Assembly (NCBI GenBank): GCA_031260975.1
Contig: JAISKJ010000003.1
Location: forward strand, 436,065-500,064
Origin: Christensenellaceae bacterium
GTDB lineage: Bacteria > Bacillota > Clostridia > Christensenellales > UBA1242
Direction of reading: 5' to 3'
DNA length: 64,000 bases
Below the pieces are notes generated by a model, which saw only the letters and a program-made list of their open reading frames with translations, searched no databases and was not told where the DNA came from. The translations under genes and the position numbers were made by a program. Below, piece by piece: positions 31,715-50,759 of this stretch. Numbering within the stretch: position 1 is the first letter of the stretch; the number at the start of each line of letters is the position of its first letter.

Positions 31715-33558
31715 TGAAAATAAACATATTAGACAGTAGCATATACAATCGAATTGCAGCGGGTGAAGTTGTTGAACGTCCTCATTCGATTGTCAAGGAG
31801 CTTGTTGAAAATAGCGTTGATTCGGGGGCTGACAGTATAATAATAGAAGTTGTGGGCGGCGGTATGCGCTCTGTGAAAGTGACTGACAACGGCAGTGGAA
31901 TTGACTTTGATGACCTGACGGCCGCATTTTTGCCGCATGCAACCAGCAAAATCAAAACAACCGACGACCTGAATTCAATCGCTACGCTGGGTTTTAGAGG
32001 TGAAGCACTTGCCAGCATCGGCTCGGTAAGTGAAATTATGTTGAGCTCCAAAACTAAAGGAGCCACTACCGGCGGTGAGGTTGAAGTAAGAGGCGGAACC
32101 ATTTCTAAACCCCATCCTAAGGGGTGCCCCGAAGGGACGCATGTTGTGGTGAATAACTTATTTTTTAATACTCCGGCCCGAGCCAAGTTTTTAAAGTCAG
32201 CCAAAACTGAAGAAAGTTATATCACCAATCTGGTTGAGCGCACAATCTTAGCCCATCCGAATATCAGTTTTAAGTATATTGTCGACGGCAAAATTGTATA
32301 TCAGACAACGGGCAAAGGCCTTGAAGAGGCGATTTATGTGATTTATGGCAAGGAAACAACGGGAAACTTAATCAGTGTAGAATATAAAAATTCTAGCCTA
32401 ACCATATCCGGTTTTGTGGGCCGACCGACTTATACTAAGCCTAATCGTACTTATCAGACGCTGGTCATAAACGGCAGGTATGTTGTTGACAGTCTTGTTT
32501 CAACGTCGGTTTTCAATGCTTTTTCGAACTATATGATGAAGGGCAGGTTCCCGTTTTTTGTTCTTTTTATAAATATGCCCTATGAGGATGTTGATGTAAA
32601 TGTTCATCCAAACAAGCTGGCTGTAAGATTTGTAAACTCCAATGGTGTGTATGTTGCGGTAAGCAATGCTGTCAGCGGCGCGTTGCTTAACGCCAACAAT
32701 ATTGTTGACGCTGTGACAACTGCTGAAAACGAGCCGATTGTGCCGATGCCAAAGGTGACGGGCAGGAGTTTTGGGGAGAGTTTGCATAATACTATGCAAA
32801 CCTTGGATGAAAAATTGCATAATACTATGCAAACAATTGACACAAAGCCCGCAGTTTCAAGTCCGATACTGCCAAATATTCCTATTACGCCTGTGGCAAC
32901 GCTAAAGGATGATGGTGGAATATATTATCAGACACTTCAGAATTATGTCAAGGCAGCTGCTCAGCCTGAAGTTTCACTTGCCGAAGGAGTTGAGGATTTT
33001 AAGATAATCGGCACAGTATTTACCACCTACATAATTGTGGAGCACAAAGGTGAAGCATATTTTATTGACCAGCACGCAGCGCACGAGCGGCTTTTGTTTG
33101 ACAAATTTTCGGCCGAATTTGAAAAGAAACAGGTTAATATCCAACAGCTGTTTGTGCCGTATGTGTTGCGGATTAATAGTGTTGAGGATGTATTTTTAAA
33201 GGAACACCTTAATGATTTTGGTGAGCTGGGCTTTGAGGTTTCGGAGTTTGGCAATCTTTCATACAAGGTTTCAAGTGTGCCGCTTAGCCTCAGTCAAATA
33301 GACCTGAGTGCATATTTTGATGACAGTCTTAAAAACCTTAACAAGCTTGGCAGCAGCGTTGAAGTCAGGCACTTTTTGGCCACAAAGGCATGCAAGGCAG
33401 CGGTCAAAGCCGGGCATGATTTAAATGGCACTGAAATTGCAACGCTGCTTAAAGAAATCAGCAAATCGGGAACAACCTTGCTTTGTCCGCACGGTAGGCC
33501 TGTTTGCGTAAGGCTTAAAAAAACCGACGTTGACAAATGGTTTAAGAGGATTGTATGA
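31714..33558 (+). CDS. mutL: DNA mismatch repair protein MutL
   Basis: 614 aa; GHKL ATPase motifs (ELVENSVDSGA, DNGSGI), C-terminal dimerisation domain (FIDQHAAHER). Confidence 0.95.
   Translation: MKINILDSSIYNRIAAGEVVERPHSIVKELVENSVDSGADSIIIEVVGGGMRSVKVTDNGSGIDFDDLTAAFLPHATSKIKTTDDLNSIATLGFRGEALASIGSVSEIMLSSKTKGATTGGEVEVRGGTISKPHPKGCPEGTHVVVNNLFFNTPARAKFLKSAKTEESYITNLVERTILAHPNISFKYIVDGKIVYQTTGKGLEEAIYVIYGKETTGNLISVEYKNSSLTISGFVGRPTYTKPNRTYQTLVINGRYVVDSLVSTSVFNAFSNYMMKGRFPFFVLFINMPYEDVDVNVHPNKLAVRFVNSNGVYVAVSNAVSGALLNANNIVDAVTTAENEPIVPMPKVTGRSFGESLHNTMQTLDEKLHNTMQTIDTKPAVSSPILPNIPITPVATLKDDGGIYYQTLQNYVKAAAQPEVSLAEGVEDFKIIGTVFTTYIIVEHKGEAYFIDQHAAHERLLFDKFSAEFEKKQVNIQQLFVPYVLRINSVEDVFLKEHLNDFGELGFEVSEFGNLSYKVSSVPLSLSQIDLSAYFDDSLKNLNKLGSSVEVRHFLATKACKAAVKAGHDLNGTEIATLLKEISKSGTTLLCPHGRPVCVRLKKTDVDKWFKRIV
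32782..32832. repeat. two perfect direct copies of the palindromic repeat, in frame inside mutL
   Basis: TTGCATAATACTATGCAAAC at 32782-32801 and 32815-32834, period 33 nt, translated LHNTMQT twice. Confidence 0.92.
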
Positions 33559-34480: not shown

Positions 34481-35707
34481 ATGAATATAAAACCGATTAT
34501 TACAAAAGCTGAACAGAAAATACAGCCTAGGTTTAAGGCTTTAGAGGATACAGCACTTTTTAATCAACACAAGGTTTTGAGTGCGCTTAAAAACAACAGG
34601 GTAGCTCTGAGGCATTTTGCGGGCACTACCGGTTATGGTTATGATGATGCGGGCAGAGATAATTTGTTTAAGGTGTATTCCGAGGTGTTCGGGGCCGAGG
34701 CTGCAATTGTGTCATATAATATCACTTGCGGCTCACATGCACTGAAAGTTGCTCTCTATGGAATTCTGCGCCCGGGCGACACTATGTTGGCTATAACCGG
34801 CAAGCCTTATGACACCATGGACATAACAATATTCGGTGATGGTGACAAAGATAATGGCAGTTTGAAGGATTTTGGTGTTATGTATAAACAGATTGACCTT
34901 AAAGACGGTAAGTTTGATGAAAAGGCAATTTTAGAAGAAGTAGCAAAAAATCCCAAAATAATATTTTTGCAGCGTTCAAAGGGATATAGTTTGAGGGATG
35001 CTTTGAGTATAGAGCAAATTGAGGACATAATAAAAAAGATACGTACTGTTAATAAAACCGGATTTATTTTTGTGGACAACTGTTATTGTGAATTTGTAGA
35101 TATGCGTGAACCATGTGAGGTCGGTGCCGACATTGCGGTTGGGTCGCTTATAAAAAATCCCGGCGGAGGAATTGTTCCCACCGGCGGATATATTGTCGGC
35201 ACTCAGCGGGCGATTGCTCTTATTGCCACCTCACACACGTCTCCGTCACTAGGTCTTGAAGTGGGTTCTAATGAGCAAGGCTACAGGCTTCTTTATCAGG
35301 GGCTTTTTATGGCACCTCATATTGTTTTACAATCGCTCAAAGGTGGACTTTTAATTGCTCAGACCATGGAGGATTTGGGCTTTGAGGTTTTTCCTAAAGC
35401 CCAAGAGCCTATGTATGATATTGTCAGGGATATAAAATTTAAGACTAAACAAGAGCTTGTCAATTTTTGTGTGGGTATTCAGCATGCATCTCCTGTGGAT
35501 AGTTTTGTTGACCCTGAACCTTGGGATATGCCGGGGTATATTGATCAGGTTATTATGGCGGCAGGTACATTTGTTCAGGGAGCGTCAATTGAGTTGTCGT
35601 GCGACGCGCCTATTAGGGAACCATATATTTTATATTTACAGGGCGGGCTTACGTATGAGCATGTTAAGCTTGCACTGAATGAGGCTATAGGGAATTTAAG
35701 GAAATAG
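34481..35707 (+). CDS. PLP-dependent aluminium-resistance/YnbB family protein (methionine gamma-lyase-like)
   Basis: 408 aa; RHFAGTTGYGYDDAGRD motif typical of this family; usual neighbour of lexA in Clostridia (from memory). Confidence 0.75.
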   Translation: MNIKPIITKAEQKIQPRFKALEDTALFNQHKVLSALKNNRVALRHFAGTTGYGYDDAGRDNLFKVYSEVFGAEAAIVSYNITCGSHALKVALYGILRPGDTMLAITGKPYDTMDITIFGDGDKDNGSLKDFGVMYKQIDLKDGKFDEKAILEEVAKNPKIIFLQRSKGYSLRDALSIEQIEDIIKKIRTVNKTGFIFVDNCYCEFVDMREPCEVGADIAVGSLIKNPGGGIVPTGGYIVGTQRAIALIATSHTSPSLGLEVGSNEQGYRLLYQGLFMAPHIVLQSLKGGLLIAQTMEDLGFEVFPKAQEPMYDIVRDIKFKTKQELVNFCVGIQHASPVDSFVDPEPWDMPGYIDQVIMAAGTFVQGASIELSCDAPIREPYILYLQGGLTYEHVKLALNEAIGNLRK

Positions 35708-35720
35708 ATACGGGCTTTTG

Positions 35721-36314
35721 TTACAAAAATCGTATAATACCCACAACCCGTCCCAAAATTTTGACATCAAAAAAATATTGCGGAGCATATTTGTTGTTGT
35801 AGGCTTTTAACATTATATTTCCGTCCTGCCTGAAAAACCGTCTAAAAATCGGTTCATTGTTTATTACACATAAAATAATATCGCCGTTGTCGGCGTAAGT
35901 TTGTTTTTTTATTATAGCCAAGTCCCCCTTAATAATTCCGATACCTGTCATGCTGTCGCTGTCAACGCTGATTGCAAACAAATCTCCGTTAAAAAGATTG
36001 GCCGATACCTTAAAGCTTTGATTATAATAATCAAGAGACAGAGGCTTTTTAATGGTTATTTTATGGATAGTGCAAAATTGTTCGTTCAGGCTTTGTGAAT
36101 AGTCCGGTATAATTTCTATGGCACGGTTTTTATTGGTGCCTTTTCTGATTTTACCTCTTTCTTCAAGTTTTGTCAGGTAATAGAATATAGTGGAAGTTGA
36201 TTTAACATTCATTTCTTGCATAAGCTCGCGCACGGTAGGAGGATATCCATGCTCGCTAAGATGAATTTTAAGAATACGAAGGAGTTTATTTAGGGTTTCT
36301 TCTATTTTTAGCAT
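35721..36314 (-). CDS. lexA: LexA repressor (S24 peptidase)
   Basis: 197 aa; N-terminal wHTH (GYPPTVRELM), S24 domain with DSDSM serine and downstream Lys. Confidence 0.87.
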   Translation of the reverse strand: MLKIEETLNKLLRILKIHLSEHGYPPTVRELMQEMNVKSTSTIFYYLTKLEERGKIRKGTNKNRAIEIIPDYSQSLNEQFCTIHKITIKKPLSLDYYNQSFKVSANLFNGDLFAISVDSDSMTGIGIIKGDLAIIKKQTYADNGDIILCVINNEPIFRRFFRQDGNIMLKAYNNKYAPQYFFDVKILGRVVGIIRFL

Positions 36315-36324
36315 AGATTTTCTC

Positions 36325-37362
36325 CTAATTATCCCGCAGTTTCACCTTATTTGCAGCGGATTTTCGGATATCCTCACTTATGGCGGCGTAATGTTTTCGT
36401 GTGGTGTTTACGTCTTTATGCCCCAAAACATCGGCCACCATATAAATATCGCCTGTTTCACGATATAAATTTGTGCCGTATGTACTTCTTAGCTTGTGGG
36501 GTGTAATTTTTTTGAGAGGAGTGGATACCGAACTATATTTTTTTACTAATTTTTCAACAGCTCTAACGCCGATTCTTTCGTTTCGAAGCGATAGAAATAG
36601 TGCATTGTCGTCGGTTTTTTTGTTAAGCTTGCGTTTTTCAAAATATTCTCTTAAGGCATCAGCCACTTCATCCGAAAAGTATAATATTGCCTGATTTCCG
36701 CCTTTTCGCATAATTCTGAAACTATTTGCATTAAAGTCGATATCATCCAAATTTAAACCCACAAGCTCGCTTATACGAATACCTGTTCCTAAAAAAAGCG
36801 TTAAAATTGCTAAATCTCGTGTTCTGGTATGCTTATTAAATTCAAGTTGCATATGGCTGAATTTGATAGGGGCTTCGGTTTGGTCCAAAAGCTTTACCAC
36901 CTCGTCAACCTCAAGGCGGATAATTTCTTTAGTGTGAATTTTTGGCATTTCTATTTTTGTTGCAACATTGGCGTCCAGCTTATCTTTGTTAAAAAAATAT
37001 TTAAAAAGACTGCGCACTGCTGCCAACTTGCGTGCCTTTGCCTTGTCGTTATTCTGAATTTTTTTGCCGTTATGCTCATAAAAACTCAGATATGATAAAA
37101 ACTTTTCAATATTTGAAGAGGTGACTGCATTTAGGTGCTTAAGTTCGAGCTCGGTAATCCGAAAGTTGTCGAATTTGGGAAGTTTTTTTACTAAAAAGTC
37201 AAAAAAAATGCCCAGATCCCTCGCATAGTTTATTCGAGTAAGAGGGGTGGTCCGGCTTTCAATACCTATGAAAAAGTCTTCGCAAAATTCGGGAAGCTCA
37301 CCCATGATGTTGTCTAGAGCTTGCGTATTTTTTTCGTTGCGTTCGACAAAATAATTACTCAC
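36325..37362 (-). CDS. tyrosine site-specific recombinase, XerC/XerD-like
   Basis: 345 aa; SAM-like N-domain, catalytic R..HKLR..LGHKDVNTTRKHY; GTG start; co-oriented 10 nt upstream of lexA. Confidence 0.85.
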   Translation of the reverse strand: MSNYFVERNEKNTQALDNIMGELPEFCEDFFIGIESRTTPLTRINYARDLGIFFDFLVKKLPKFDNFRITELELKHLNAVTSSNIEKFLSYLSFYEHNGKKIQNNDKAKARKLAAVRSLFKYFFNKDKLDANVATKIEMPKIHTKEIIRLEVDEVVKLLDQTEAPIKFSHMQLEFNKHTRTRDLAILTLFLGTGIRISELVGLNLDDIDFNANSFRIMRKGGNQAILYFSDEVADALREYFEKRKLNKKTDDNALFLSLRNERIGVRAVEKLVKKYSSVSTPLKKITPHKLRSTYGTNLYRETGDIYMVADVLGHKDVNTTRKHYAAISEDIRKSAANKVKLRDN

Positions 37363-37368
37363 AAATAC

Positions 37369-37397
37369 ATTTTATCAAATTTCGCACAGGTTGTAAA
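37369..37397 (-). promoter_or_regulatory. promoter of xer-lexA (TTTACA-17-TAAAAT), GTG start 6 nt after the -10 box
   Basis: -35 at 37397-92, -10 at 37374-69, GTG at 37362-60, no SD. Confidence 0.5.
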
Positions 37398-37544
37398 GGA
37401 ATTAGTACCTGCATATAAGTTTCTTGGATTTTAGCCGTAATGCATATGCGTCAAAGTAGATATGTATTTATTTTGCCTTATGTCAAAAAGTTTAAGCGAA
37501 TATATTTAGTTACTTGGAGTTAAGAGAAAAAGGCGGGCATTCAT

Positions 37545-37573
37545 TTGACATTTTTGGCAGGGAATATTATAAT
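37545..37573 (+). promoter_or_regulatory. consensus sigma-A promoter of serS (TTGACA-17-TATAAT)
   Basis: -35 at 37545-50, -10 at 37568-73. Confidence 0.75.
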
Positions 37574-37578
37574 ATAAA

Positions 37579-37596
37579 TTGCATAATGCTGTGCAA
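37579..37596. repeat. palindromic repeat copy, 2 mismatches (TTGCATAATGCTGTGCAA)
   Basis: Starts about 6 nt after the serS -10 box, at the predicted transcript 5' end. Confidence 0.8.
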
Positions 37597-37611
37597 ACTT
37601 TTGGAGGAAAA

Positions 37612-38901
37612 ATGATAGACATAGAGCTTATAAGAAACAATCCTGAAATGGTCAAAAAAAATATAAAAAAGAAGTTTCAGGACAAAAAACTGCCGCTTGT
37701 TGATGAGGTGAAAACTCTCGACATAAGAAGCCGCAGTCTTAAGCAGGAAATTGACAGTCTCAGAAGCAGCCGCAACAAGTTGAGCCAAGAAATTGGCGAG
37801 TTTATGAAGCAAAAGAAAAGCAGTCAGGCTGAAACGCTGAAAAAACAGGTTGTGGATATAAACACTAAGGTTGCTGAGCTTGAGACGGAATATAATGAGG
37901 TAGGCACAAAAATCAACCAAATTATGATGACAATTCCAAATATCATAGCTGATGATGTGCCGGTTGGCCGCAGCGACGCCGAAAATGTTGAGCGTGAAGT
38001 GTTTGGCAAGCCAAAGAAGCCGGATTTTGAAATTCCATATCATGCCGATATTATGGAGAATTTGTGTGGGCTTGACAAAGATAGTGCCGGAAAAACCTCA
38101 GGTAATGGATTTTATTTTTTGATGGGTGATGTGGCAAGGCTTCATTCAGCCATTTTGTCGTATGCCCGTGATTTTATGATAGACAAGGGTTTTAATTATT
38201 GTATTCCTCCGTTTTTGATACACGCAGACGTGGTCAGAGGCGTTATGAGCTTTGCTGAAATGGACGCTATGATGTATAAAATTGAAGGCGAGGACCTTTA
38301 TATGATAGGCACCAGCGAGCACTCAATGATAGGAAAATATAAAGATGCCGTTTTAAAGGAAGAAGATCTTCCGATTTGTCTTACGTCATATTCGCCGTGC
38401 TTCCGTAAAGAAGTTGGTGCACACGGCATTGAGGAACGCGGCATATACAGAGTTCATCAGTTTGAAAAGCAGGAAATGATAGTAATTTGCAAAAAAGAAG
38501 AAGCTAGAATGTGGTATGATAAAATGTCGCATTTTGCGGTTGATTTTTTTAAAAGTCTTGAACTGCCGGTGCGTATTTTAGAATCATGTAGCGGGGATTT
38601 GGCCGATTTAAAGGTTAAGGGTTGCGATATTGAGGGATTTAGTCTGAGGCAGCAAAAGTATTTGGAGCTTGGAAGCTGTTCGGATATGGGAGACGCTCAG
38701 GCACGAAGGCTGGGTATGCGATATAAGACGGCAAGTGGTACAGTTTTTGCGAACACTTTAAACAACACCGTTGTGGCTACACCCAGGGTGTTGACTGTGT
38801 TTTTTGAAAATCATCTGCAAAAAGATGGTTCGGTAAATATACCAAAAGCTCTTCAGCCTTATATGGGAGGCAAAACTAAGCTGGAACCAAAAAAGAAATG
38901 A
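37612..38901 (+). CDS. serS: seryl-tRNA synthetase
   Basis: MIDIELIRNNPE start with GGAGG SD; coiled-coil N-domain, class II motifs. Confidence 0.96.
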   Translation: MIDIELIRNNPEMVKKNIKKKFQDKKLPLVDEVKTLDIRSRSLKQEIDSLRSSRNKLSQEIGEFMKQKKSSQAETLKKQVVDINTKVAELETEYNEVGTKINQIMMTIPNIIADDVPVGRSDAENVEREVFGKPKKPDFEIPYHADIMENLCGLDKDSAGKTSGNGFYFLMGDVARLHSAILSYARDFMIDKGFNYCIPPFLIHADVVRGVMSFAEMDAMMYKIEGEDLYMIGTSEHSMIGKYKDAVLKEEDLPICLTSYSPCFRKEVGAHGIEERGIYRVHQFEKQEMIVICKKEEARMWYDKMSHFAVDFFKSLELPVRILESCSGDLADLKVKGCDIEGFSLRQQKYLELGSCSDMGDAQARRLGMRYKTASGTVFANTLNNTVVATPRVLTVFFENHLQKDGSVNIPKALQPYMGGKTKLEPKKK

Positions 38902-38908
38902 AAGAGGT

Positions 38909-38992
38909 CGGGCTTTGGCGCAAACAGGAGTTTGCGCGGCGCAACTACTTGTTGCGCCGGCGTGAGCCTTCTGGCTCACGCCGCAAAGCCCG
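38909..38992 (+). other. structured intergenic element E2: three hairpins closed by a 9-bp outer stem
   Basis: Outer CGGGCTTTG/CAAAGCCCG (38909-17/38984-92); H1 38918-37 (8 bp), H2 38938-58 (8 bp), H3 38959-82 (10 bp). Confidence 0.7.
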
Positions 38993-39036
38993 CTTCATAA
39001 AATTACTCGTGGGACGCCCCCGAAAAGGAGCCGAAA

Positions 39037-39939
39037 TTGAAAAAACAAAGAATTGAACAATTTGCAACAGAAGTTAATGGCGATACTGCCAAAGAAAATT
39101 ATAAAATTGCACTTAATGTAATCATAGAGGCGCTTGAGGGGCTAACCGGTAAGGTGTCTACACTGACGCCCGAGGAAGTGCGTGTTTTTCCGATGGGTGA
39201 GCTCACCAACGGCACCTTTGTTGACACAAACGATGAAATTGAAATAGCTCTTGTCACCAGCAATCCTCAAATGGCGTTTACAAATTCCGCCTACATAAGA
39301 CTTATGTCTGAGATTAAAAAACAGAAAGACCGCGACGCAGTCAGTTCAGACAACACTACACATCAAATCATACAGCTTTTGTTTGATGAATTTATTAAAT
39401 TGTTTTCGGCTGACACTACAATCATTATAACTCAACAAGGAATAAAAATATTATCTAACAAGGAGCTTGGCTTTAAAATTATGTTACGCCTCGGCACGTA
39501 TAATGCCTATGACACAAATTTTGTGCTGTCACTGTGGAATCCTGTGCGAAAAACAACTGAAAATCTTGATATTTTCGGCTATGCTGAAGCTATGAAAAAG
39601 AAAGACGATGATACAGACGGCAACTTTAACAAAATTGTAAGAATTTTTAAAAACTTCCGTAAAGCTGTTGTGGCCAATAAATGGTTCGGCAGTTCATTTG
39701 CAAACAAATATCTGGTTGAGATGGTAGTATACAACATACCAAACTCATTGCTTAAAGGCAGTGATGTATATAAGGTTTATGTCAAAAGTATAAATTATTT
39801 ACTGAATTGTCCGCTGAGTAGTTTTAAATCTTTTAACGGCGGGCAGCTTAGTAGTTTTCCGATAGCAGGCGCAGATCAATATCACATAAAAACTTTCCTG
39901 AGCAGCTGCAGCAGATTGCTGGCGCTCAAGGATGTATAA
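39037..39939 (+). CDS. hypothetical protein, possibly a divergent Pol-beta-fold nucleotidyltransferase (CD-NTase/SMODS-like layout)
   Basis: 300 aa, TTG start with AAAAGGAG SD; MGELTNGTFVDTNDEIEIALV resembles hG[GS]x9-13DhDh with GE and EIE substitutions; later FNKIVRIFKNFRK...YLVEMVVYNIP helices. Confidence 0.35.
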   Translation: MKKQRIEQFATEVNGDTAKENYKIALNVIIEALEGLTGKVSTLTPEEVRVFPMGELTNGTFVDTNDEIEIALVTSNPQMAFTNSAYIRLMSEIKKQKDRDAVSSDNTTHQIIQLLFDEFIKLFSADTTIIITQQGIKILSNKELGFKIMLRLGTYNAYDTNFVLSLWNPVRKTTENLDIFGYAEAMKKKDDDTDGNFNKIVRIFKNFRKAVVANKWFGSSFANKYLVEMVVYNIPNSLLKGSDVYKVYVKSINYLLNCPLSSFKSFNGGQLSSFPIAGADQYHIKTFLSSCSRLLALKDV

Positions 39940-40087
39940 AGCGAGCCCTTAACAATACAAAAAAATAAAAGCAAAGTTTTTGAAGTTCTTTAATAACATA
40001 TTAGGCAGAATAAAAATAAAAAAACAAATATAAACACACAAATTCGTTTTTTGCATAGCACCACTGTTTTCAGGCAAAAATACCCAT

Positions 40088-40121
40088 ATCTATTCGCAAA
40101 AGCTGTCTTTTGCGAATAGAT
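40088..40121. other. perfect 15-bp hairpin ATCTATTCGCAAAAG-CTGT-CTTTTGCGAATAGAT
   Basis: Read directly; lies between convergent genes; arm resembles the ATTCGACAAAAA module. Confidence 0.7.
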
Positions 40122-40186
40122 TATGTAGGCCCCATTTTGGCCCTTCTTTTAACCTCTTTTCTAAAAAAACAACCTTTTTTAACAAA

Positions 40187-40235
40187 AATATTCGACAAAA
40201 AAGCGGTGTCTTTCACCGCCCTTTTGTCGAATATT
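40187..40235. other. nested long hairpin (14-bp outer stem AATATTCGACAAAA, inner GCGGTG-TCTTT-CACCGC)
   Basis: Read directly; T-run follows on the minus strand, so possibly the terminator of the DUF45 gene. Confidence 0.65.
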
Positions 40236-40321
40236 TAACGTAACATTCTTTTTGGCAGGCAAAGTTCAGCCCCGTTTCAATCGTGTGGACACTACGGGCT
40301 TTTAAGAAAATGAAATCTCAG

Positions 40322-41035
40322 TCACCTATAAATCCCAAGCAGAAAGTTGTTGCGTTTGAGTGTGAGACGTGCCTGCTTCCAGCCTGGCATGAGGCGCTCA
40401 AGCACTGCATAAAACTTTTGCGAATGGTTCATCTCATATGTGTGGCTAAGCTCATGCAGAATTACATAATCAATGACATTGTGCGGCAGCATTACAAGCC
40501 GCCAATTTAATTTGATATTCTTATTTGTATCACAACTACCCCATTTTGCTTTAAAGTCGCCGATTTTCAGGCTTTTATAACCTATCCCGTGCGTCTTCCC
40601 AAGCGTCTCAAGCCGTTTGGTAAGTATTTCCGCCCCTAGTGCCCTTTGCCATTTCAATAAGTGTTTTATGTATGAGCCTTCTATATAATATTTATTTGGC
40701 ACGATTACCTGATTTTTTTCAATTGTTATTGTCTTTGTGTCGCCGGCGGTGATGTCATAAAGCGTTCCGCACACTGAAATTTGTTTAAAGTTGATTATGG
40801 TTTGATGGTCAATATTCACCTGTGCTATCTGCTGCATCTTTTTTTCAATCCATTTGGCTTTTTGATTTATGATTTCACCAAGCCGTTGAGTATTCATTTT
40901 TATGGGTGCAAAAACCACCAGCTTTCCGTGGGTGTCTATGGTTATCTTAACGCTTCTGCGACGCTCACGCAGAATGTCGGCGATATCTATTAAGTTTTGC
41001 ATAGTATTATTCAAACTTTGCATAGTATTATTCAA
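40322..41035 (-). CDS. YgjP-like/DUF45 family metal-dependent hydrolase (HExxH)
   Basis: HELSHTYEMNHSQKFY zinc motif, RRSVKITIDTHGKLVVFAP N-region; start ambiguous (TTG 41035, ATG 41023 or ATG 41002), all inside repeat copies. Confidence 0.8.
   Translation of the reverse strand: MNNTMQSLNNTMQNLIDIADILRERRRSVKITIDTHGKLVVFAPIKMNTQRLGEIINQKAKWIEKKMQQIAQVNIDHQTIINFKQISVCGTLYDITAGDTKTITIEKNQVIVPNKYYIEGSYIKHLLKWQRALGAEILTKRLETLGKTHGIGYKSLKIGDFKAKWGSCDTNKNIKLNWRLVMLPHNVIDYVILHELSHTYEMNHSQKFYAVLERLMPGWKQARLTLKRNNFLLGIYR
40997..41035. repeat. two direct palindromic repeat copies, 1 mismatch each (TTGCATAGTATTATTCAA), period 21 nt
   Basis: 40997-41014 and 41018-41035; encode NNTMQ twice on the minus strand. 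Confidence 0.85.
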
Positions 41036-41084: not shown

Positions 41085-41096
41085 TTGCATAGTATT
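41085..41096. repeat. half copy of the palindromic repeat (TTGCATAGTATT)
   Basis: Ends 3 nt before the -35 box of the PadR-like gene promoter. Confidence 0.6.
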
Positions 41097-41099: not shown

Positions 41100-41128
41100 T
41101 TGACTTTTTTGCCTTTTTTTTGTATAAT
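41100..41128 (+). promoter_or_regulatory. consensus promoter of PadR-like gene (TTGACT-17-TATAAT, TG-extended)
   Basis: -35 at 41100-05, -10 at 41123-28; SD AAGAGGG then ATG 41147. Confidence 0.7.
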
Positions 41129-41146: not shown

Positions 41147-42913
41147 ATGGCAGAAGAAACAAAGGCAAACCGCGGCACCATTATACAAATAGTGCTGAAC
41201 AGCCTACTTGACGGTGATAAATATGGATATGAAATCTGCAAAGATATTGAGCAGAAAAGCGGCGGTAAGCTTGTGCTGAAGCAGCCCAGCCTTTATAGTA
41301 GCCTCAGGCGTATGAGCGAAAAAGGCGTGATATCTTCTTATTGGGATGAGAGCGATCAGGGCGGCAGAAGGCATTATTACAGCATTACTGAGGGCGGACG
41401 CGAGCAATATGAACGCAATAAAAGCAATTGGGCGAATTATAACGCTCTTGTTTCGTCGCTTAACACCGAAGAACTTAAGGCGTTGAGCGCTGAGCCGCAA
41501 AAAACTCAGGAAGAACAAAAAAGCGACAGTATAAAAGTGGTTAAGCAGGAAAATCTGTTTGCCTTCACAAAGCCAATTCCAAAAGTAGATGCAGAAGAAT
41601 CTGCACCGGCTTCTTTTGTGCAATATGATTTATTTAATGTTGCTTCTAAGTTTGTAGCCAGCGATGCGGCTGAGATAAAGACTGAAACAAATTTATATCA
41701 AAACAAGTTCAGCGACAGTGCTGACCCCAAAAGCACCATCCAGCCGCTCTCTCCTATTTTTAAGTCTTATGAAAGTGTAAATACACGCGACCTTGAAAAC
41801 CTGCAGAAGAATTATAATTCATATGCCAACAGTGAAGACACAGAGGATGTTGATATTTCAGGTTTGTCTTTGAGTGATTTTGGTCTGGATGATACACCGG
41901 CAAATGATGAGCCTGAACAGGACGCAGAACTAAAAGAAATCACTCATCACGAGGTTAAGGAAATTGAGTTTCATGAGCATATGGAGCCTGAAGCTCAGGA
42001 AAAAGACCCCTATGCTCCGGGAGATCTCAGCAAGTTTAGTGAGGTTTTAAGCGACGAACAAAGAGTTGAAACCGGTTTTAGCGAACAATATTCTTCAAGA
42101 TATGAATATAATCCGGCTACATATACGGTTAAGCCCAAAGAGCGCGTTAGAAGCGAAGAGCCTGATATAGATTACAAAAATATATTAGGCGGGCTTTATG
42201 CCGGTGGGGGCCGCGGTGATCCCTATGAAAAAAAACGCTTTGATGAGCAGCAATATCTCAAACAGTATGAGGGTGAAAGCGAGAACGCAGTGCAGCCTAT
42301 ACCTGAAGAGGCTCCCCTTCCTGCATCCGAAACTCCGCAGCTTGTCAATATCAGCCCGCAGTATGACGATTATAATGTCAGCGCAAACAGTTTTGAAATG
42401 TTTAAGAGCGACCTTGCTATGGATGGCATAAGGGTCAAAAAGTATGTTAAGCACAAAAATATAATCCGTACGGGCGACAATTTTATCAAATACAGCAAGC
42501 TCAAGTTGGTTCAGGGCTGGCTGTTGTGGCTCATTATGGCGGCGGAGATTGTGGCTGCTTACTTTATTATGAAATCGGTAAACCTGCTGCCGGCAGCTCA
42601 AGAAAACCTTTACTTTATAGCCATTGGCGTGATATTTGCCTACCCACTCTTTTATAGTCTGGCTTATATGATAAATCCCGATAGAAAAATCGCTTCAACA
42701 TTTAGGGTGAACATAAGCTTGTTTAACAGGCTGCTTGCTGTGATGATTACCGTAGTGTTTGTATTTTCAATAAGTTTATTTATGGGTATGACTGCCCTCA
42801 ACCAGCTGGATTTTCTTAATTATTGGCTGCTTCCCATAATTCTTAGCACAAACTATATTGTGGCAGGGCTTCTGTATTACATTTTACTTCGAAGCAAAAG
42901 ATATAATGTATGA
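41147..42913 (+). CDS. PadR-family wHTH protein with long acidic linker and C-terminal multi-TM domain
   Basis: N-terminal LLDGDKYGYEICKDIE...LKQPSLYSSLRRMSEKGVISSYW PadR fold; several hydrophobic helices in the last 130 aa. Confidence 0.75.
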   Translation: MAEETKANRGTIIQIVLNSLLDGDKYGYEICKDIEQKSGGKLVLKQPSLYSSLRRMSEKGVISSYWDESDQGGRRHYYSITEGGREQYERNKSNWANYNALVSSLNTEELKALSAEPQKTQEEQKSDSIKVVKQENLFAFTKPIPKVDAEESAPASFVQYDLFNVASKFVASDAAEIKTETNLYQNKFSDSADPKSTIQPLSPIFKSYESVNTRDLENLQKNYNSYANSEDTEDVDISGLSLSDFGLDDTPANDEPEQDAELKEITHHEVKEIEFHEHMEPEAQEKDPYAPGDLSKFSEVLSDEQRVETGFSEQYSSRYEYNPATYTVKPKERVRSEEPDIDYKNILGGLYAGGGRGDPYEKKRFDEQQYLKQYEGESENAVQPIPEEAPLPASETPQLVNISPQYDDYNVSANSFEMFKSDLAMDGIRVKKYVKHKNIIRTGDNFIKYSKLKLVQGWLLWLIMAAEIVAAYFIMKSVNLLPAAQENLYFIAIGVIFAYPLFYSLAYMINPDRKIASTFRVNISLFNRLLAVMITVVFVFSISLFMGMTALNQLDFLNYWLLPIILSTNYIVAGLLYYILLRSKRYNV

Positions 42914-42982
42914 CATTTTCTTGTCATATCGGTATTTACATAATAAAACGCGTGTGATATAATATCATAAAATGGGGTGCCT

Positions 42983-43972
42983 ATGAAAGTTAATTTAGAG
43001 GTAAAGAACCTTACCAAAACATTTGGATCCAGGACTGCCGTGAATAATGTCTCCTTTGAGGTTTTTGAAGGAGAGATTTTCGGTTTTCTTGGCCCGAATG
43101 GCGCCGGAAAAACTACCGTTCTTCGCATGGTTTGCGGCCTTGCCGCTCCCACCTCGGGCGATGCTATAATTTGCGGACACTCCATCAAAAAAGAATTTGA
43201 AAAAGCCATCATAAATGTTGGCGGAATTATTGAAAACCCTGAAATGTATAAAAATTTTTCAGGACTTGAAAATTTAAAGTATTATGCCAGCCTATATAAA
43301 GACATTGACAAAGACCGTATAAATCAGGTTGTTGAGCTTGTGGGTCTTAAAGACAGAATGAAAGATAAAATAAAGACCTACTCTCTCGGAATGAAGCAGC
43401 GCATAGGCATTGCTCAGGCGCTTTTGCACAGGCCTAAACTGTTGATACTTGACGAGCCCACCAATGGTCTTGACCCCAGCGGTGTTATTGATATGCGAAA
43501 ATTCCTCACCAAGCTTGCCAAAGCCGAAGGCATATCAATCCTTATCTCAAGCCACGGTCTTGCTGAAATGGAGCTTATTTGCGACACAATCGGCATCATC
43601 GACCGGGGCGTGTTGGTTAGCATCCGCAGCGTTGCCGACATGACCAAAGGGGGTGCTCCGAGAATTCAGATAACGGTTAACTTCCCCAACTACGCAGGAA
43701 AGCTGCTGTTTGAAAAATATGAAACGCTTGACAGCATAACTCTTGAAGATAATACCCTGACAGTTGGGCTTCCTATTGAAGAAGTGCCCGAGATAACAAA
43801 CTATCTGGTAAAAAAAGGACTGCGGATTTATTCAATTACTTCAACGGTAAAGACCTTGGAAGAGGCTTTTTTAGAAACCATTGAAAATGAGCGGCTTTCT
43901 TTTGGAAATCAGGACAGACTTACCTATCAGACAACCACAACTACAACGACCACAACGGGAACGACAAGATAG
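42983..43972 (+). CDS. ABC transporter ATP-binding protein (C-terminal poly-Thr tail)
   Basis: Walker A GPNGAGKTT, signature YSLGMKQR, Walker B LLILDEPT; ends TYQTTTTTTTTTGTTR. Confidence 0.92.
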   Translation: MKVNLEVKNLTKTFGSRTAVNNVSFEVFEGEIFGFLGPNGAGKTTVLRMVCGLAAPTSGDAIICGHSIKKEFEKAIINVGGIIENPEMYKNFSGLENLKYYASLYKDIDKDRINQVVELVGLKDRMKDKIKTYSLGMKQRIGIAQALLHRPKLLILDEPTNGLDPSGVIDMRKFLTKLAKAEGISILISSHGLAEMELICDTIGIIDRGVLVSIRSVADMTKGGAPRIQITVNFPNYAGKLLFEKYETLDSITLEDNTLTVGLPIEEVPEITNYLVKKGLRIYSITSTVKTLEEAFLETIENERLSFGNQDRLTYQTTTTTTTTTGTTR

Positions 43973-44046
43973 AAAACAAAAAACTGAACAATTCTGCAGT
44001 AAATACTTAATGGGACATTACTGCCACAATAAATAAGGAGAAAAGT

Positions 44047-45831
44047 ATGTTTAAATTATTTAGAGGAGAGCTTCGAAAAATAATATTGCGGCCCGGCATA
44101 TATATTATGACAGCTCTTTTGGTGCTGGTGCTGATACTTGCTCCTATGATTTTTAAGCCCTCTGCGCGAACAGATGCGCTTCCTGTAATTGACGGCACAA
44201 CAGTGTCGGCTCACAACAGTTATTTTAGCGTAAACATAAAACCAGAGCGCGACCAAAGTCTGACGGACAGGGTTATTATTGCCGAAGATATTTTGAGCAA
44301 CCCCGCCCGAAATGTGGTCTATGACAACATTCTGTCATATTTTGTACGCCCTGTTGTTGACACTATAAACCCTGTTACGCTAAAAGATTTTTACGGCAAG
44401 TTTGAAGGAATTATGGGCACCTTGCCTTTGGATATCACTTCGGTGAGAACTGAGCTTGAAAGTGCGGTTTTGGGCATGAAAAACAGTGCTAACACGCTTT
44501 CAAACAAATATTCCGAAACTGTCACCAGCATAACTCCCCTCGTTTTGGTGTCAAAGGAAACCAACGAGCAAATAAGAAGTGTGCTTGAAGGGCTTATTCA
44601 AAGACTTAATGTTTTTAGTGCTGGTGTGCAGGACCGTATAGACTATATCAACCTGCGGGCAAACCTTATTGACTTTGGGTATATCCGTGACCTTGACACA
44701 CACTTTGTAAACGTAAAAAATATAGAATACGATAACCAGATGCTGCAGCAGATTTATGAGGACTATTATGTCGGCGTGCCTGCTCATTTGACTGATTTAA
44801 ACAATGAAATATTGGCACTTGCTCTAGGTGTTCCTAGTGACCCAGCGGCTCAGGCTCAGGGTAAAATAGATATAGACGAAAAAATTTGGGCTTATGCTGC
44901 CCTTTCAAAAAACACAACCAGAATTTTGGATAATGCTATTATGCTGAGTGCCGCCGCAGGCAAAAGTGACGCTGAAATGAGCGGATATATCGGCTTTGAA
45001 AACTTTAATAATTATCAACGAACAGAAGAACTGACCAAATACAAATTTCTTTTTGACAACGATAAGGCCGAATATGACTATGCAAATGTGTTTGCGTTTG
45101 GCAGGAACAGTGATTTTTATACCAACGCATATGACTTTATATATTTTGTGCTTGAAATTTTTGCTTTTGTAATAATTGCTTATGGTGTGGTGCTTGGTGC
45201 CGGAATGATTGCAGGTGAGCAAAGCAGCGGTACAATCAAACTGCTTGCCATAAGGCCATATAATCGCGGCAAAATAATGTGCTCCAAAATGATGGCTGCT
45301 TTCTTCTTTGTGACATTGTTTACTGTGCTGTCAACCATCATAGCTATTATAGCCTCACTGTTTATATACGGAACAGGCGCGCTGGCTTCACTTCCGGTGC
45401 TTGTAATATTCAATGCAACTCTGCCCTTTACGCTAAACGCCTGGGTGCTGCTGCTTATATATCTTGCTGCTTTGATTATAAAGGCGTGGATATTTGTGCT
45501 GCTGGCTTTTGCGATTTCTACGTTGTTTAAGTCTCATGTGGGTGCCGTAATTATCTCAGTTCTTCTATATTTGATAAGTATGGTAATAACCTTTGTGGCG
45601 GCGGGTGCAAATTGGCTTAAGTATGTGATATTCAGCAACCTTGACTTCTTTAAGTATTTCGGAGGCTCGTTTATAAATCAGTATCGGTCGGGCGAAACCT
45701 TTACTAACCTGTTTATAAATCCCGTGTTTGCCGACACTACCATAATCTATACTTCAGTTGTTGTCGTAGGCTTGCTGCTGCTTCTAAATATTATAACCTT
45801 TGCAACATTTAAGCACAGGGATATAACATAA
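44047..45831 (+). CDS. ABC-2 type permease with about 330-aa extracytoplasmic domain
   Basis: 594 aa; one N-terminal TM, large soluble region, five or more C-terminal TM helices; follows the ATPase. Confidence 0.7.
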   Translation: MFKLFRGELRKIILRPGIYIMTALLVLVLILAPMIFKPSARTDALPVIDGTTVSAHNSYFSVNIKPERDQSLTDRVIIAEDILSNPARNVVYDNILSYFVRPVVDTINPVTLKDFYGKFEGIMGTLPLDITSVRTELESAVLGMKNSANTLSNKYSETVTSITPLVLVSKETNEQIRSVLEGLIQRLNVFSAGVQDRIDYINLRANLIDFGYIRDLDTHFVNVKNIEYDNQMLQQIYEDYYVGVPAHLTDLNNEILALALGVPSDPAAQAQGKIDIDEKIWAYAALSKNTTRILDNAIMLSAAAGKSDAEMSGYIGFENFNNYQRTEELTKYKFLFDNDKAEYDYANVFAFGRNSDFYTNAYDFIYFVLEIFAFVIIAYGVVLGAGMIAGEQSSGTIKLLAIRPYNRGKIMCSKMMAAFFFVTLFTVLSTIIAIIASLFIYGTGALASLPVLVIFNATLPFTLNAWVLLLIYLAALIIKAWIFVLLAFAISTLFKSHVGAVIISVLLYLISMVITFVAAGANWLKYVIFSNLDFFKYFGGSFINQYRSGETFTNLFINPVFADTTIIYTSVVVVGLLLLLNIITFATFKHRDIT

Positions 45832-45834: not shown

Positions 45835-45980
45835 TTGACAAAAACAAAACCTTTGAGGTATAATAAAATCATGAAAATAGAATTCTATACACTACTATCA
45901 TAAATGGGCATGTCACAAGGCATGCGCTTTTTGGTGGTGCTATAGGTTAACCGACAGCACATACTGTCGGATTTTTTTAT
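45835..45980 (+). promoter_or_regulatory. leuS leader: promoter TTGACA-18-TATAAT, 10-codon mini-ORF (45871-45903, MKIEFYTLLS), GGTGGTGC box, intrinsic terminator 45951-45978
   Basis: All elements read directly; terminator CCGACAG-CACATA-CTGTCGG plus T7. Confidence 0.6.
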
Positions 45981-46056
45981 AAATACTAGTTTTTATAAAA
46001 ATATCACAAGCAGATTAAGGCTAACGTCCGCGGGTGTACACACAAGGAGAGAAAAT

Positions 46057-48426: not shown

Positions 48427-48449
48427 AAAAGAGATTAAATCTCTTTTTT
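48425..48449. terminator. bidirectional terminator between leuS and rnhA
   Basis: AAAAAAGAGAT-TAA-ATCTCTTTTTT symmetrical hairpin. Confidence 0.8.
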
Positions 48450-48453
48450 GTTT

Positions 48454-48912
48454 TTATGTCAGTTTTGTCAAATCGCTTTTAAATTTCTCACTTTCTTTTA
48501 CGGCGATTTTATCGCACTTGTTGTTATACTCATTGTCAGCGTGGCCCTTAACTTTCACAAATCTTACAGTGTGTTTCCTTGTTAAATTTAAAAGTTCTTC
48601 CCACAAATCCTGATTGAGCACGGGCTTTTTGTTTGCGCTTCTCCATCCGTTTAAAACCCAGCCGGATATCCAATCTTGCAAAAACGCATTGCACACATAA
48701 GCTGAGTCTGTATATAATTTTACCGCACAAGGTTCTTTCAGCGCGCTCAACCCTTCAATGGCTCCCTTTAGCTCCATGCGGTTGTTGGTGGTGGCACGCT
48801 CCCCTCCTGACAAAACCTTTTCTTTTTTTCCATATAACAAAATTGCACACCAGCCACCGGGGCCGGGGTTTCCGCTACACGCTCCGTCTGTATAAATTTC
48901 TACTTGCTTCAT
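48454..48912 (-). CDS. rnhA: ribonuclease HI
   Basis: 152 aa; IYTDGACSGNPGPGGW, NNRMEL, HADNEYNNKCD motifs. Confidence 0.93.
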   Translation of the reverse strand: MKQVEIYTDGACSGNPGPGGWCAILLYGKKEKVLSGGERATTNNRMELKGAIEGLSALKEPCAVKLYTDSAYVCNAFLQDWISGWVLNGWRSANKKPVLNQDLWEELLNLTRKHTVRFVKVKGHADNEYNNKCDKIAVKESEKFKSDLTKLT

Positions 48913-49104
48913 GTTCTAATTATAATCCAATAAGACAAGCATTGTCAATCAAACTTGTTTGTAAAGTCATGCATTTTGAAAGTTGGGCAGAATCAGGAAA
49001 AATATAATTATAATCATGAAGCTTATTTTTTGTCATTTGAGCTGTCAACACAATCAACTTGCAAATTTCATAAACTACTTTAATTAAAATGAGGAGAAAA
49101 AATT

Positions 49105-49935
49105 ATGAAATTTTGTGACAGTCACAGTGATTGCCTGACTTTTTATAGCATTGAAAATGCCGCTCAATATCTTAAAAGTTATAAAACAAAAAACATAAAA
49201 ACACTTTGCTGTGCCGTGTTTACAAGTGAGCTGAAAGAAGACCCGCTTTTATATATTGAAGCCGCGGCAGCCCAAATAAAGGCGTTAAATTCAGGACATA
49301 AATTTATTATTTACGGTGAAGACTGCAGTTTTTTGACAAAAAGCAACCTAAAAACTTTGATAGATTTGCGTCCTGTTTCATGCGGGCTCACATGGCATTT
49401 TGACAATAGTCTTGCCGGAGGCGACGAGGGACACGGAGATATCACTCCGTTTGGAACTGAAGTCATAAAAACTCTGGAGCAAAATAACATTTTTATAGAT
49501 ACTGCTCATCTCAACCGTAAATCTTTTTATCAGGTTTGCGGGCTTTCAAAAAAACCTATTTACAACTCTCACTGCGGCGTATATAAGTTTTGCCGCAACA
49601 AACGGAACTTGACCGACCAACAGATTAAATATATTTTTGATACAAACGGTTTTATGGGTATTTATCTTGTTTCATATTTGTTGAGCAAAAAGCATTGTTC
49701 CGTTAGGACTGTTGCTGAGCATTTTGATTATGTAATAAGAAAATTCGGATATAAAAATGTAGGCTTAGGCACGGATTTTTTTGGCACAAAAAACCTGCCC
49801 GCACGTGCGACGGGCTATGATGATTTGCATTTGATTTTAAAAGAACTGAAAGACATGGGACATTCGCGCAAAATAATAAAACATATTGCTCATAAAAACT
49901 ATACTGATTTTTTAAAACGCAGCGGATTATTGTGA
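49105..49935 (+). CDS. membrane dipeptidase (M19 family)-like protein
   Basis: 276 aa; CDSHSDCL, DTAHLN, GLGTDFFG motifs resembling the renal dipeptidase family. Confidence 0.7.
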   Translation: MKFCDSHSDCLTFYSIENAAQYLKSYKTKNIKTLCCAVFTSELKEDPLLYIEAAAAQIKALNSGHKFIIYGEDCSFLTKSNLKTLIDLRPVSCGLTWHFDNSLAGGDEGHGDITPFGTEVIKTLEQNNIFIDTAHLNRKSFYQVCGLSKKPIYNSHCGVYKFCRNKRNLTDQQIKYIFDTNGFMGIYLVSYLLSKKHCSVRTVAEHFDYVIRKFGYKNVGLGTDFFGTKNLPARATGYDDLHLILKELKDMGHSRKIIKHIAHKNYTDFLKRSGLL

Positions 49936-50751: not shown

Positions 50752-50759
50752 ATAATTTA

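Follow-up and report, generated by a model that had tools for sequence, protein, structure and literature searches.

An 18-bp palindrome at the serS promoter of a Christensenellaceae bacterium is one copy of a dispersed and conserved sequence element

Results

An 18-bp element with the consensus TTGCATA-RTRC-TATGCAA occurs ten times, and the palindrome just downstream of the serS promoter in this Christensenellaceae bacterium is one of these copies. The count (ten copies at six loci) covers about 74 kb of the genome, made up of the 64,000-nucleotide stretch of DNA analysed here (the window), L172 and L293. The original prediction had treated the palindrome as a device of serS; because it belongs to a dispersed family of ten that is kept in relatives, this part of the prediction is not supported, and the palindrome is a genome-wide protein-binding or hairpin element rather than a serS-specific switch. 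The family, its positions and its conservation are read directly from the DNA. What deserves attention is an 18-bp palindrome, strictly conserved and specific to its lineage, that marks cinA-recA, serS, mutL, ygjP, yajC and ppa in an uncultured gut Christensenellaceae lineage and still occupies the same places in three or more related species. We tentatively read the element, at somewhat below even odds (probability about 0.45), as the binding site of a sequence-specific dimeric DNA-binding protein, possibly of the PadR family, whose position at +1 to +18 of serS would block the promoter.

The serS promoter and its leader

serS (37612-38901, plus strand) encodes a seryl-tRNA synthetase of 429 residues with the Pfam domains Seryl_tRNA_N and tRNA-synt_2b, and a protein search returned an identical protein annotated as serine--tRNA ligase in a Christensenellaceae MAG. 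Direct reading confirms every element that had been proposed for its 5' region, all on the plus strand: a -35 hexamer TTGACA (37545-37550), a 17-nt spacer, a -10 hexamer TATAAT (37568-37573), the palindrome (37579-37596), a Shine-Dalgarno sequence GGAGG (37603-37607) and the start codon ATG (37612-37614). In the orthologues L167 and L164 the -35 hexamer is TTGACT and the -10 hexamer is again TATAAT. Within 35000-41000 the serS promoter is the sole 12/12 match, and the whole window holds four perfect matches against approximately 0.08 expected by our base-composition estimate; all four front genes, the other three being leuS, rnhA and tRNA-Trp. The hexamers, the 17-nt spacing, the location upstream of a gene and the conservation in orthologues are those of a sigma-A (sigma-70-type) promoter. 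serS is transcribed from this consensus promoter with a leader of about 31 nt from the predicted start, as short as had been claimed, and without a T-box.

The T-box leader (RF00230) is the usual control of aminoacyl-tRNA synthetase genes in Bacillota and is about 200 nt long, far longer than the serS leader. Two Rfam scans agree with the reported lack of a T-box at serS: at gathering score the window yields tRNA-Trp alone, and the RF00230 covariance model has no match at E<=10 in 37250-37750. The same Rfam method detects a T-box at 70.8 bits at thrS in the same genome. The missing T-box had also been presented as noteworthy, but it is unremarkable. At pheST, too, the leader is short and gives no T-box match at E<=1, and leuS has a leader of non-T-box type, which leaves thrS as the only one of these genes with a T-box. 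The serS leaders of the syntenic relatives L164 and L167 are likewise short, and the T-box core motif is found upstream in about 46 of the 150 closest SerRS loci, approximately 70% being without it. Aminoacyl-tRNA synthetase genes of this Christensenellaceae genome usually have a short leader without a T-box. This lowers the interest of serS itself, whose strong promoter and short leader lacking a T-box follow the norm.

Ten copies of an 18-bp element

The serS copy (TTGCATA-ATGC-TGTGCAA, TTGCATAATGCTGTGCAA, 37579-37596, plus strand) spans about +1 to +18 of the predicted transcript. It has perfect 5-bp arms (TTGCA/TGCAA) and a 4-nt centre, and makes seven pairs if one G-T (U.G) is allowed. 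As a hairpin alone it is no better than chance: in a 52-nt context it folds at -6.1 kcal/mol (z = +0.35), and 127 of 200 shuffles fold as well. As a sequence it is far from chance, with ten sites within three mismatches in the window where 0.19 are expected. In a weight-matrix scan the ten copies score 24-30 bits and nothing else in the window exceeds 9.9 bits (shuffle maxima 6-15 bits); the serS copy, at 24.2 bits, scores lowest of the ten.

The copies are single or paired, the members of a pair being 21, 22 or 33 bp apart. Between ruvB and yajC a single copy (TTGCATAATACTATGCAA, 4800-4817, plus strand) lies 17 nt past the ruvB stop; relative to the predicted yajC promoter (4833-4862) it is centred at about -60. 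The tandem pair between the rimO-like gene and cinA-recA (23003-23042, plus strand; copies 23003-23020 and 23025-23042, 22 bp start to start) provides the TAG stop of the rimO-like gene with its first copy and ends 27 nt ahead of the cinA ATG; no predicted promoter was found near it. In mutL the pair is in frame within the linker (32782-32832, plus strand; copies 32782-32799 and 32815-32832, 33 bp apart), and each copy encodes LHNTMQT. The ygjP pair (40997-41035, minus strand; copies 40997-41014 and 41018-41035, 21 bp) covers the probable start of that gene, with the ATG inside the arm TATGCAA, and stands about -108 and -130 from the promoter of a gene for a PadR-like protein. A half-site (TTGCATAGTAT, 41085-41095, plus strand) follows, 4 nt upstream of the -35 hexamer of the latter gene (41100-41105), which thus has two copies and a half-site upstream. 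The sixth locus, thiI|ppa (58697-58747, minus strand), combines a half-site (58697-58705) with a pair (58708-58725 and 58730-58747, 22 bp) that begins 2 nt past the thiI stop; relative to the predicted ppa promoter (58679-58650) the two copies are centred at about -73 and -95.

The possibility that the copies are promoters in their own right was rejected, acceptable -35/-10 geometry being absent. A scan of IMG/VR for TTGCATA-N4-TATGCAA gave single chance matches per contig only.

Conservation in relatives

The 161 SerRS-related loci from GTDB and JGI are at most 68% identical, too distant for footprinting, and none is syntenic; closer relatives were obtained by protein searches combined with contig look-ups. 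In L167, whose SerRS is 85% identical, the -35 and -10 hexamers, the palindrome (TTGCATAGTGCTATGCAA, L167 1539-1556, the counterpart of 37579-37596) and the ribosome-binding region are conserved while the remaining intergenic DNA is largely unalignable. This contrast makes an operator-like function compatible with the evidence. From the palindrome to the ATG a single base differs between the two genomes. L167 carries a 10-nt insertion, about one helical turn, between promoter and palindrome, and the distance from palindrome to Shine-Dalgarno sequence is unchanged.

Copies are kept at orthologous positions at two further loci. L168 and L170 both retain the cinA pair, with spacings of 22 and 33 bp respectively, and L168 also retains the mutL pair, at 11438 and 11471; the positions are kept although CinA is only 80-85% identical. 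In the syntenic relative L164, mutL contains a degenerate copy, and there are no full copies in 20 kb.

Across 18 copies the arms TTGCATA/TATGCAA show little or no change, whereas the centre takes the forms ATAC, GTAC, GTGC, GAAC and ATGC, with C as its fourth base in 17 of the 18. Asymmetric centres run 14:1 in the sense direction. Both substitutions at arm position 13 give U.G on the sense strand. Among the ten copies the orientation of the centre agrees with transcription in nine and with replication in seven. The pair spacings, 21, 22, 22, 22, 33, 33 and 33 bp, correspond to two or three turns of the helix, and additional half-sites are found at a distance of 11 bp.

A putative operator for a dimeric protein

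Invariant arms around a variable centre are the pattern expected for a dyad that is contacted in two half-sites, and the element has just this form, conserved half-sites with a variable spacer. We propose that it is a dispersed, selectively maintained and putatively high-affinity site for a dimeric protein. Paired copies would hold two dimers on one face of the helix. At serS a protein bound at about +1 to +18 (+11 to +28 in the relative) would prevent the open complex from forming, or else stop promoter escape or early elongation, and serS would share one signal with cinA-recA, ygjP and the other marked loci. The serS copy is located where repressor operators lie, which we count in favour of an operator. 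Of the earlier proposal that the palindrome is a repressor operator, the position and the conservation in the orthologue are compatible with it; its confinement to serS is what had to be given up. Action on double-stranded DNA, repression and the identity of the binder are three separate steps that we infer. Were they to hold, the element would define an undescribed regulon in which a single signal reaches both a tRNA synthetase and recombination genes.

Several features speak against an operator. Overlap with promoters differs from locus to locus: the copies stand at +1 to +18 at serS, -60 at yajC, -73/-95 at ppa and -108/-130 at the PadR-like gene, and are intercistronic at cinA and intragenic in mutL. 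The genes have no obvious common physiological theme. A gradient of weaker sites is lacking, and the element carries about 28 bits of information, far more than approximately one site per 6 kb needs; on these two counts copied elements fit better than an evolved regulon. The 14:1 orientation of the centre with transcription and the U.G character of both position-13 changes on the sense strand are also awkward for a site read in DNA, and the 21-22 bp spacing can equally be read as the 3-4-nt loop of a long hairpin between copies.

Candidate binding proteins

The best lead for the binder is a PadR-family protein. The window encodes one, apparently membrane-anchored, at 41147-42913 (plus strand), next to the ygjP pair and followed by ABC transporter genes; it is a candidate only. 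It has an N-terminal LmrR-like winged helix (E about 1e-19; distantly AphA-like at E 9e-4), an acidic linker and a hydrophobic C-terminal region that we read as transmembrane. The operators of B. subtilis PadR and LmrR-type proteins are ATGT-N8-ACAT, and the TGCA-N8-TGCA geometry of the element is this 4-8-4 geometry. A literature search on motif words gave nothing relevant except a paper on AphA, a PadR-family regulator of Vibrio with the consensus ATGCAA-N4-TTGCAT, which binds single sites or adjacent pairs cooperatively and whose sites can overlap transcription start sites (PMC6855506). The half-site hexamers of the element, TTGCAT and ATGCAA, are identical to those of AphA but everted relative to the AphA order, with N6 between them. 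The AphA order is restored at the junction of the 22-bp pairs, which reads ATGCAA-N4-TTGCAT exactly at cinA (in the window and in L168) and with one mismatch at ppa. The window protein differs from AphA in being LmrR-like, apparently membrane-anchored and paired with an ABC transporter. Its LmrR-like character and the adjoining transporter suggest a local rather than a global regulator, and L164 has an orthologue of it, yet no full element copies in the 20 kb covered, which counts against the operator reading.

Other motifs, among them those of ArgR, Rex, CRP/FNR and NsrR, appear to be unlike the element in sequence or spacing. NrtR was considered because cinA/PncC is an NAD-salvage gene and nrtR lies at 49927-50751. 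The NrtR operator, which precedes NAD genes, is a 21-bp palindrome built on a GT-N7-AC core (PMC2330246). NrtR was rejected as the binder: the element is an even-length 18-bp dyad, and no copy lies upstream of the prs-nadV-nadE-nrtR operon. Whichever reading of the element applies, one 18-mer and a few candidate binders make a concrete target for testing.

Alternative explanations

The copies could instead be REP/REPIN-like, short palindromes at gene boundaries that act as hairpins in the sense RNA on mRNA processing, stability, readthrough or translation, with the serS copy one more boundary hairpin in a 5' UTR; single copies would form a stem of 7 bp and paired copies one of up to 18 bp. This is the main rival, and we hold it less likely than an operator. 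The copies all lie in sense-transcribed regions at gene boundaries (ruvB +17 nt, the rimO stop, thiI +2 nt, the serS 5' UTR and the ygjP start), and the cinA pair is conserved with no predicted promoter nearby. At serS it is the distance to the Shine-Dalgarno sequence that is fixed and the distance to the promoter that shifts by 10 nt. The 14:1 sense orientation and the U.G-compatible changes at position 13, which trouble an operator, suit an RNA hairpin, and so do near-identical copies with an all-or-none distribution. The cinA pair of the window folds as an 18-bp stem of -25.6 kcal/mol, and inverted doublets are already a known kind of element, REPINs being REP doublets in inverted orientation. 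As in the REP, BIME and REPIN elements of Proteobacteria, short near-identical palindromes, single or paired, mark operon junctions and the edges of genes with a density near one locus per 10 kb; pairs can form a long hairpin, and the orientation is biased with transcription. The stems, however, are without any covariation and are conserved in sequence beyond pairing, the ygjP copies have an uncompensated A.G mismatch, and the single hairpin is weak (-5.4 kcal/mol) and in context no better than shuffles. REP and REPIN palindromes are defined by a GTAG or CGTC tetranucleotide at their 5' end, whereas the copies start with TTGC, their flanks are variable and neither tag is present. Among the window ORFs scanned there was no RAYT-like gene and no Y1-transposase domain. 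REP sequences are extragenic, 20-40 bp long and GC-rich; the element is 18 bp, AT-rich and perfectly symmetric in its arms, two of its ten copies lie in frame within mutL, where they are conserved, and others overlap a stop or start codon. Retention of position across species, at 80-85% CinA identity, is unusual for mobile repeats. If REP-like after all, the element would be an unusually short, AT-rich and partly intragenic example from Bacillota.

The three remaining explanations fare worse than this. The original prediction had offered, as the alternative to an operator, a serS-specific 5'-terminal stem-loop that guards the mRNA against 5'-end-dependent decay, and we now give this little chance. 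Known stabilisers of this type are the ermC, aprE and ompA leaders, which the serS stem resembles in sitting at, or close to, the predicted beginning of a short leader: a start about 7 nt past the -10 hexamer, near 37580, would put the transcript 5' end at the first bases of the stem. It differs from them in being weak (-5.2 to -6.1 kcal/mol, z = +0.35), in recurring internally and 3' (the same sequence is found at nine other places, none of them a transcript 5' end) and in not being 5'-terminal in the orthologue. There the 10-nt insertion in L167, placed ahead of the stem with the Shine-Dalgarno distance fixed, would leave about ten unpaired 5' nucleotides, or seven where the predicted fold extends the stem into the insert. 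The weak stem and this insertion weaken the proposal, and a 5'-terminal stabilising role is unlikely. Nor do we put much weight, indeed slightly less, on the 18-mers being matS-, XDS- or dif-like chromosome sites unrelated to serS expression. They would then belong to an as yet undescribed system, analogous in function to matS/MatP or XDS/XerD, that organises the terminus region in spore-forming Christensenellaceae, and either a terminus-organising protein or the Xer-like recombinase encoded nearby would bind them. At about 48.5 kb the GC skew and the direction of the genes change over together, as they do at a replication terminus, and a terminus organiser would explain the presence of copies on both sides of this point, the very high information content, the all-or-none distribution and the conserved in-frame copies in mutL; a tyrosine recombinase gene also adjoins serS. 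The right half of the element with its flank (CTATGCAAACT) matches 9 of 11 positions of the XerD arm of B. subtilis dif, which counted for such sites, but a test of the dif-like similarity gave 8 matches where 4.1 are expected, no more than chance allows. Xer sites such as dif and XDS have two 11-bp arms flanking a 6-bp central region, while here the arms would be 2 bp apart, and no full dif-like site was found within three mismatches; identity with dif or XDS was rejected. Whereas matS and parS sites are mostly inside genes, five of the six loci are intergenic or at a boundary. The centre follows transcription (9/10) better than replication (7/10), and L164 shares the recombinase gene without element copies. 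Least credible of all is an SOS operator bound by the neighbouring LexA-like repressor, with copies near recA, lexA, ruvB and mutL. The Firmicutes SOS box (GAAC-N4-GTTC) is likewise palindromic, sometimes tandem and upstream of recA; here cinA-recA is immediately preceded by a tandem pair, the intergenic region common to serS and the xer-lexA operon holds one copy, and no canonical box was found near recA or lexA in the window. Against this, the xer-lexA operon has its own conserved promoter beside xer, without the palindrome. LexA was rejected as the binder: its recognition helix (STSTIFYYL) is identical in relatives that keep a canonical AGAAC-N4-GTTTG box (lexA of L164, recA of L171). The SOS box is also unlike the element in sequence and geometry, and L171 carries both, at separate places.

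Promoter and leader of serS

The seryl-tRNA synthetase gene serS (37612–38901) has a product identical to a protein annotated on an 828-kb contig of a Christensenellaceae MAG. On direct reading, every coordinate originally assigned to its promoter, palindrome, GGAGG and ATG is exact. The −35 hexamer TTGACA (37545–37550) and the −10 hexamer TATAAT (37568–37573) are separated by a 17-nt spacer, and the palindrome TTGCATAATGCTGTGCAA (37579–37596) follows five bases past the −10 hexamer, ahead of the Shine-Dalgarno sequence GGAGG (37603–37607) and the start codon at 37612. This promoter is the sole 12/12 consensus match within 35000–41000. Four such perfect matches (serS, leuS, rnhA and tRNA-Trp) occur in the whole window against ~0.08 expected from base composition, and they are therefore real strong promoters. 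The neighbouring xer-lexA operon has the promoter TTTACA-17-TAAAAT (37360–37397, reverse strand), whose −10 hexamer ends 6 nt ahead of the GTG with which the recombinase gene starts. L167 (a related locus syntenic around serS) has the same conserved arrangement, pointing to a transcript with no leader or almost none.

The absence of a T-box from the short serS leader, which the original prediction had singled out, is confirmed by Rfam, with no T-box in the window and no match of any kind at E ≤ 10 in the region 37250–37750; it is not a remarkable trait, since pheST and leuS likewise show none and the syntenic relatives also have short serS leaders. In thrS of the same genome a T-box is clearly present at 3468–3651 of L172 (70.8 bits, E = 1.7e-15), ~2.4 kb before the window begins. 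Because it scores below the Rfam gathering score of 93, our permissive scan is able to detect divergent T-boxes in this genome, and scans at the gathering threshold miss T-boxes in this lineage. In pheST a promoter TTGACT-17-TATGTT is followed by a leader of ~35 nt with no T-box match at E ≤ 1, and the ~190-nt leader behind the consensus leuS promoter is structured and includes a terminator but is no T-box. The serS leaders of the syntenic loci L164 and L167 are short, with consensus-like promoters. Among the loci of the closest SerRS proteins (GTDB and JGI metagenomes), a T-box core motif is found in the 500 nt preceding ~46 of 150 (2 on the control strand), and Rfam confirms a T-box in four or five of 17 loci. 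The missing serS T-box is ordinary for this genome.

The leuS promoter (perfect TTGACA-18-TATAAT) and leader, at 45835–46056, deserve separate mention. The leader folds at −48.6 kcal/mol (z = −4.4), far better than shuffles, contains a terminator-like hairpin with a U-run at ~45951–45980 and has no Rfam match even at E ≤ 10. It may be an attenuator outside the known classes, or else a highly diverged T-box (GGTGGTGC at ~45932).

A dispersed and conserved 18-bp element

The palindrome had been presented as a device of serS; it proves to be one of ten copies of a dispersed element with the consensus TTGCATAATACTATGCAA. Allowing up to three mismatches, a search of the window with the serS sequence finds ten sites where 0.19 would be expected, and a search by arms alone finds 16 where 7.4 would be. 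In a weight-matrix scan the ten copies score 24–30 bits, the serS copy (37579) being the weakest, and all else scores ≤9.9 bits, inside the shuffle range. One copy (4800) lies 17 nt past the ruvB stop and is centred ~60 bp ahead of the start site predicted for yajC. A pair at 23003 and 23025, with no promoter predicted nearby, ends 27 nt ahead of cinA-recA, and its first copy provides the stop codon of a rimO-like gene. The pair at 32782 and 32815 is in frame in the mutL linker. That at 40997 and 41018 overlaps what is probably the start of ygjP, divergent from a PadR-like gene, and that at 58708 and 58730 lies before the ppa promoter, beginning 2 nt past the thiI stop. Another ~10 kb of the same genome, flanking the window on either side, added no copy.

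GTDB and JGI SerRS loci were too distant for footprinting, and closer relatives were obtained by protein search and contig look-up. At L167 (SerRS 85% identical) the −35, −10, palindrome and ribosome-binding region are conserved and the remaining intergenic DNA is barely alignable. The palindrome there, TTGCATAGTGCTATGCAA, has perfect arms; 10 nt are inserted between it and the −10 hexamer, and its distance to the Shine-Dalgarno sequence is unchanged. L168, from the same sample, has a cinA pair at 22 bp and a mutL pair at 33 bp, L170 (CinA 80% identical) a cinA pair at 33 bp, and L171, whose CinA is 60% identical, a single copy upstream of cinA with pgsA on one side and a GNAT gene on the other. 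The fully syntenic L164 (LexA 45% identical) has only right-half matches and no full copy in 20 kb. Across 18 copies compared, variation is essentially limited to the four central bases and spares the arms, so purifying selection acts on the element in a small clade. We take the serS palindrome to be functional but not peculiar to serS, and the finding is better classed as a palindromic element of 18 bp that is conserved and lineage-specific.

At L164 the serS −10 hexamer is followed by a small palindrome of different sequence, TAGTATACTA, and the palindromes AACTTTGT-TTT-ACAAAGTT abut the −35 hexamer (8760–8810, reverse strand). A dyad after the serS −10 may be a recurring arrangement whose sequence changes. 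In MutL, the linker encoded at 32782–32832 has T-M-Q peptide repeats, (LHN)TMQT occurring twice, and that of L164 (~13530–13600) three TMQ/AMQ repeats. CTATGCAAA encodes all of them, which suggests either a linker motif that matters in the protein or a DNA element tolerated there. The sequence TTTTGTCGAAT has four exact occurrences. Two (4820–4830; 58685–58695, reverse strand) sit between an element copy and the −35 of yajC or ppa, and two (40190–40200, reverse strand; 40222–40232) form the arms of a 20-bp terminator hairpin at 40189–40233. It includes the Spo0A-box core TGTCGAA; the sporulation genes spoVA and yunB are carried by the same genome (L293).

DNA site or RNA hairpin

We favour, at a probability of roughly 45%, a double-stranded DNA operator for a putative binding protein. 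The arms are kept in sequence with no covariation, pairs are spaced at 21, 22 and 33 bp with extra half-sites 11 bp away, and the serS indel between L167 and the window is 10 nt. The PadR-family regulator AphA binds the consensus ATGCAA-N4-TTGCAT at single sites or cooperative pairs (PMC6855506), and the element hexamers TTGCAT and ATGCAA equal its half-sites, a likeness we count for a DNA site; the junctions of the 22-bp cinA pairs reproduce the AphA consensus. If bound by protein, the element would block the serS promoter at +1 to +18 (+11 to +28 at L167).

Less probable, but the main rival, is that the element acts on transcripts in the manner of REP/REPIN sequences, and several features fit this. 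All copies lie at gene boundaries in sense-transcribed DNA, the cinA pair without a predicted promoter; asymmetric centres run 14:1 along the sense strand, the fourth centre base being C in 17 of 18 copies, and both arm substitutions at position 13 are U.G on the sense strand. The fixed spacing at serS, comparing L167 with the window, is to the Shine-Dalgarno sequence and not to the promoter, the distribution is all-or-none with ~2x the information needed by a regulon, and the 3–4-nt gap would also suit a long two-copy hairpin (−25.6 kcal/mol at cinA). However, the mutL copies are in frame and conserved, the ygjP mismatch is uncompensated, the single stem is weak, and the DNA read (window, L172, L293) has no RAYT gene, nor does the element bear a GTAG or CGTC tag. 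At serS the hairpin reaches an unremarkable −6.1 kcal/mol in 52-nt context (z = +0.35). As RNA it would leave the Shine-Dalgarno sequence unsequestered, standing 6 nt ahead of it in both the window and L167. A purely 5′-terminal protective stem, as once proposed, is unlikely because the stem is weak and L167 has a 10-nt 5′ extension.

Candidate binding proteins

Returning to a protein-bound site, the only candidate binder with any support is the PadR-like protein (41147–42913, ~590 aa), an unusual member of its family, yet from its gene context and domains it looks like a local regulator. An LmrR-like winged helix (E ~1e-19; AphA, E = 9e-4) is joined by a long, acidic linker of low complexity to a hydrophobic C terminus that we read as a putative multi-pass membrane domain. 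Two element copies and a half-site lie upstream of its promoter, and ABC transporter genes follow downstream (42977–45831). L164 keeps this arrangement, with a protein of 666 aa and no element alongside. NrtR (49927–50751) was rejected: its motif geometry differs and the NAD operon has no element copy. Its prs-like/NAMPT-like/nadE/nrtR cluster (49927–54005, reverse strand) is the classic NrtR-type NAD-salvage arrangement. The LexA-like protein (35721–36314, reverse strand) was also rejected, since relatives with an identical recognition helix retain canonical AGAAC-N4-GTTTG boxes, L164 at lexA and L171 at recA.

LexA variant and possible replication terminus

In the LexA-like proteins of the window species and its two closest relatives (P0001–P0003), the Ala-Gly cleavage site is gone (3-residue deletion, KITIKKP) and Arg stands at the catalytic Lys position; Ser and the DNA-binding helix are retained. 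More distant relatives (P0004 onward) have a normal cleavage site. Around recA and lexA the window has no canonical SOS box; L164 and L171 have one each. This LexA may resist cleavage, and the SOS response may have been rewired. At ~48400–49950, where no B. subtilis-type dif site occurs within 3 mismatches, GC skew changes from ~+0.1 to ~−0.1 and gene orientation from forward to reverse (leuS and rnhA convergent), as expected of a replication terminus.
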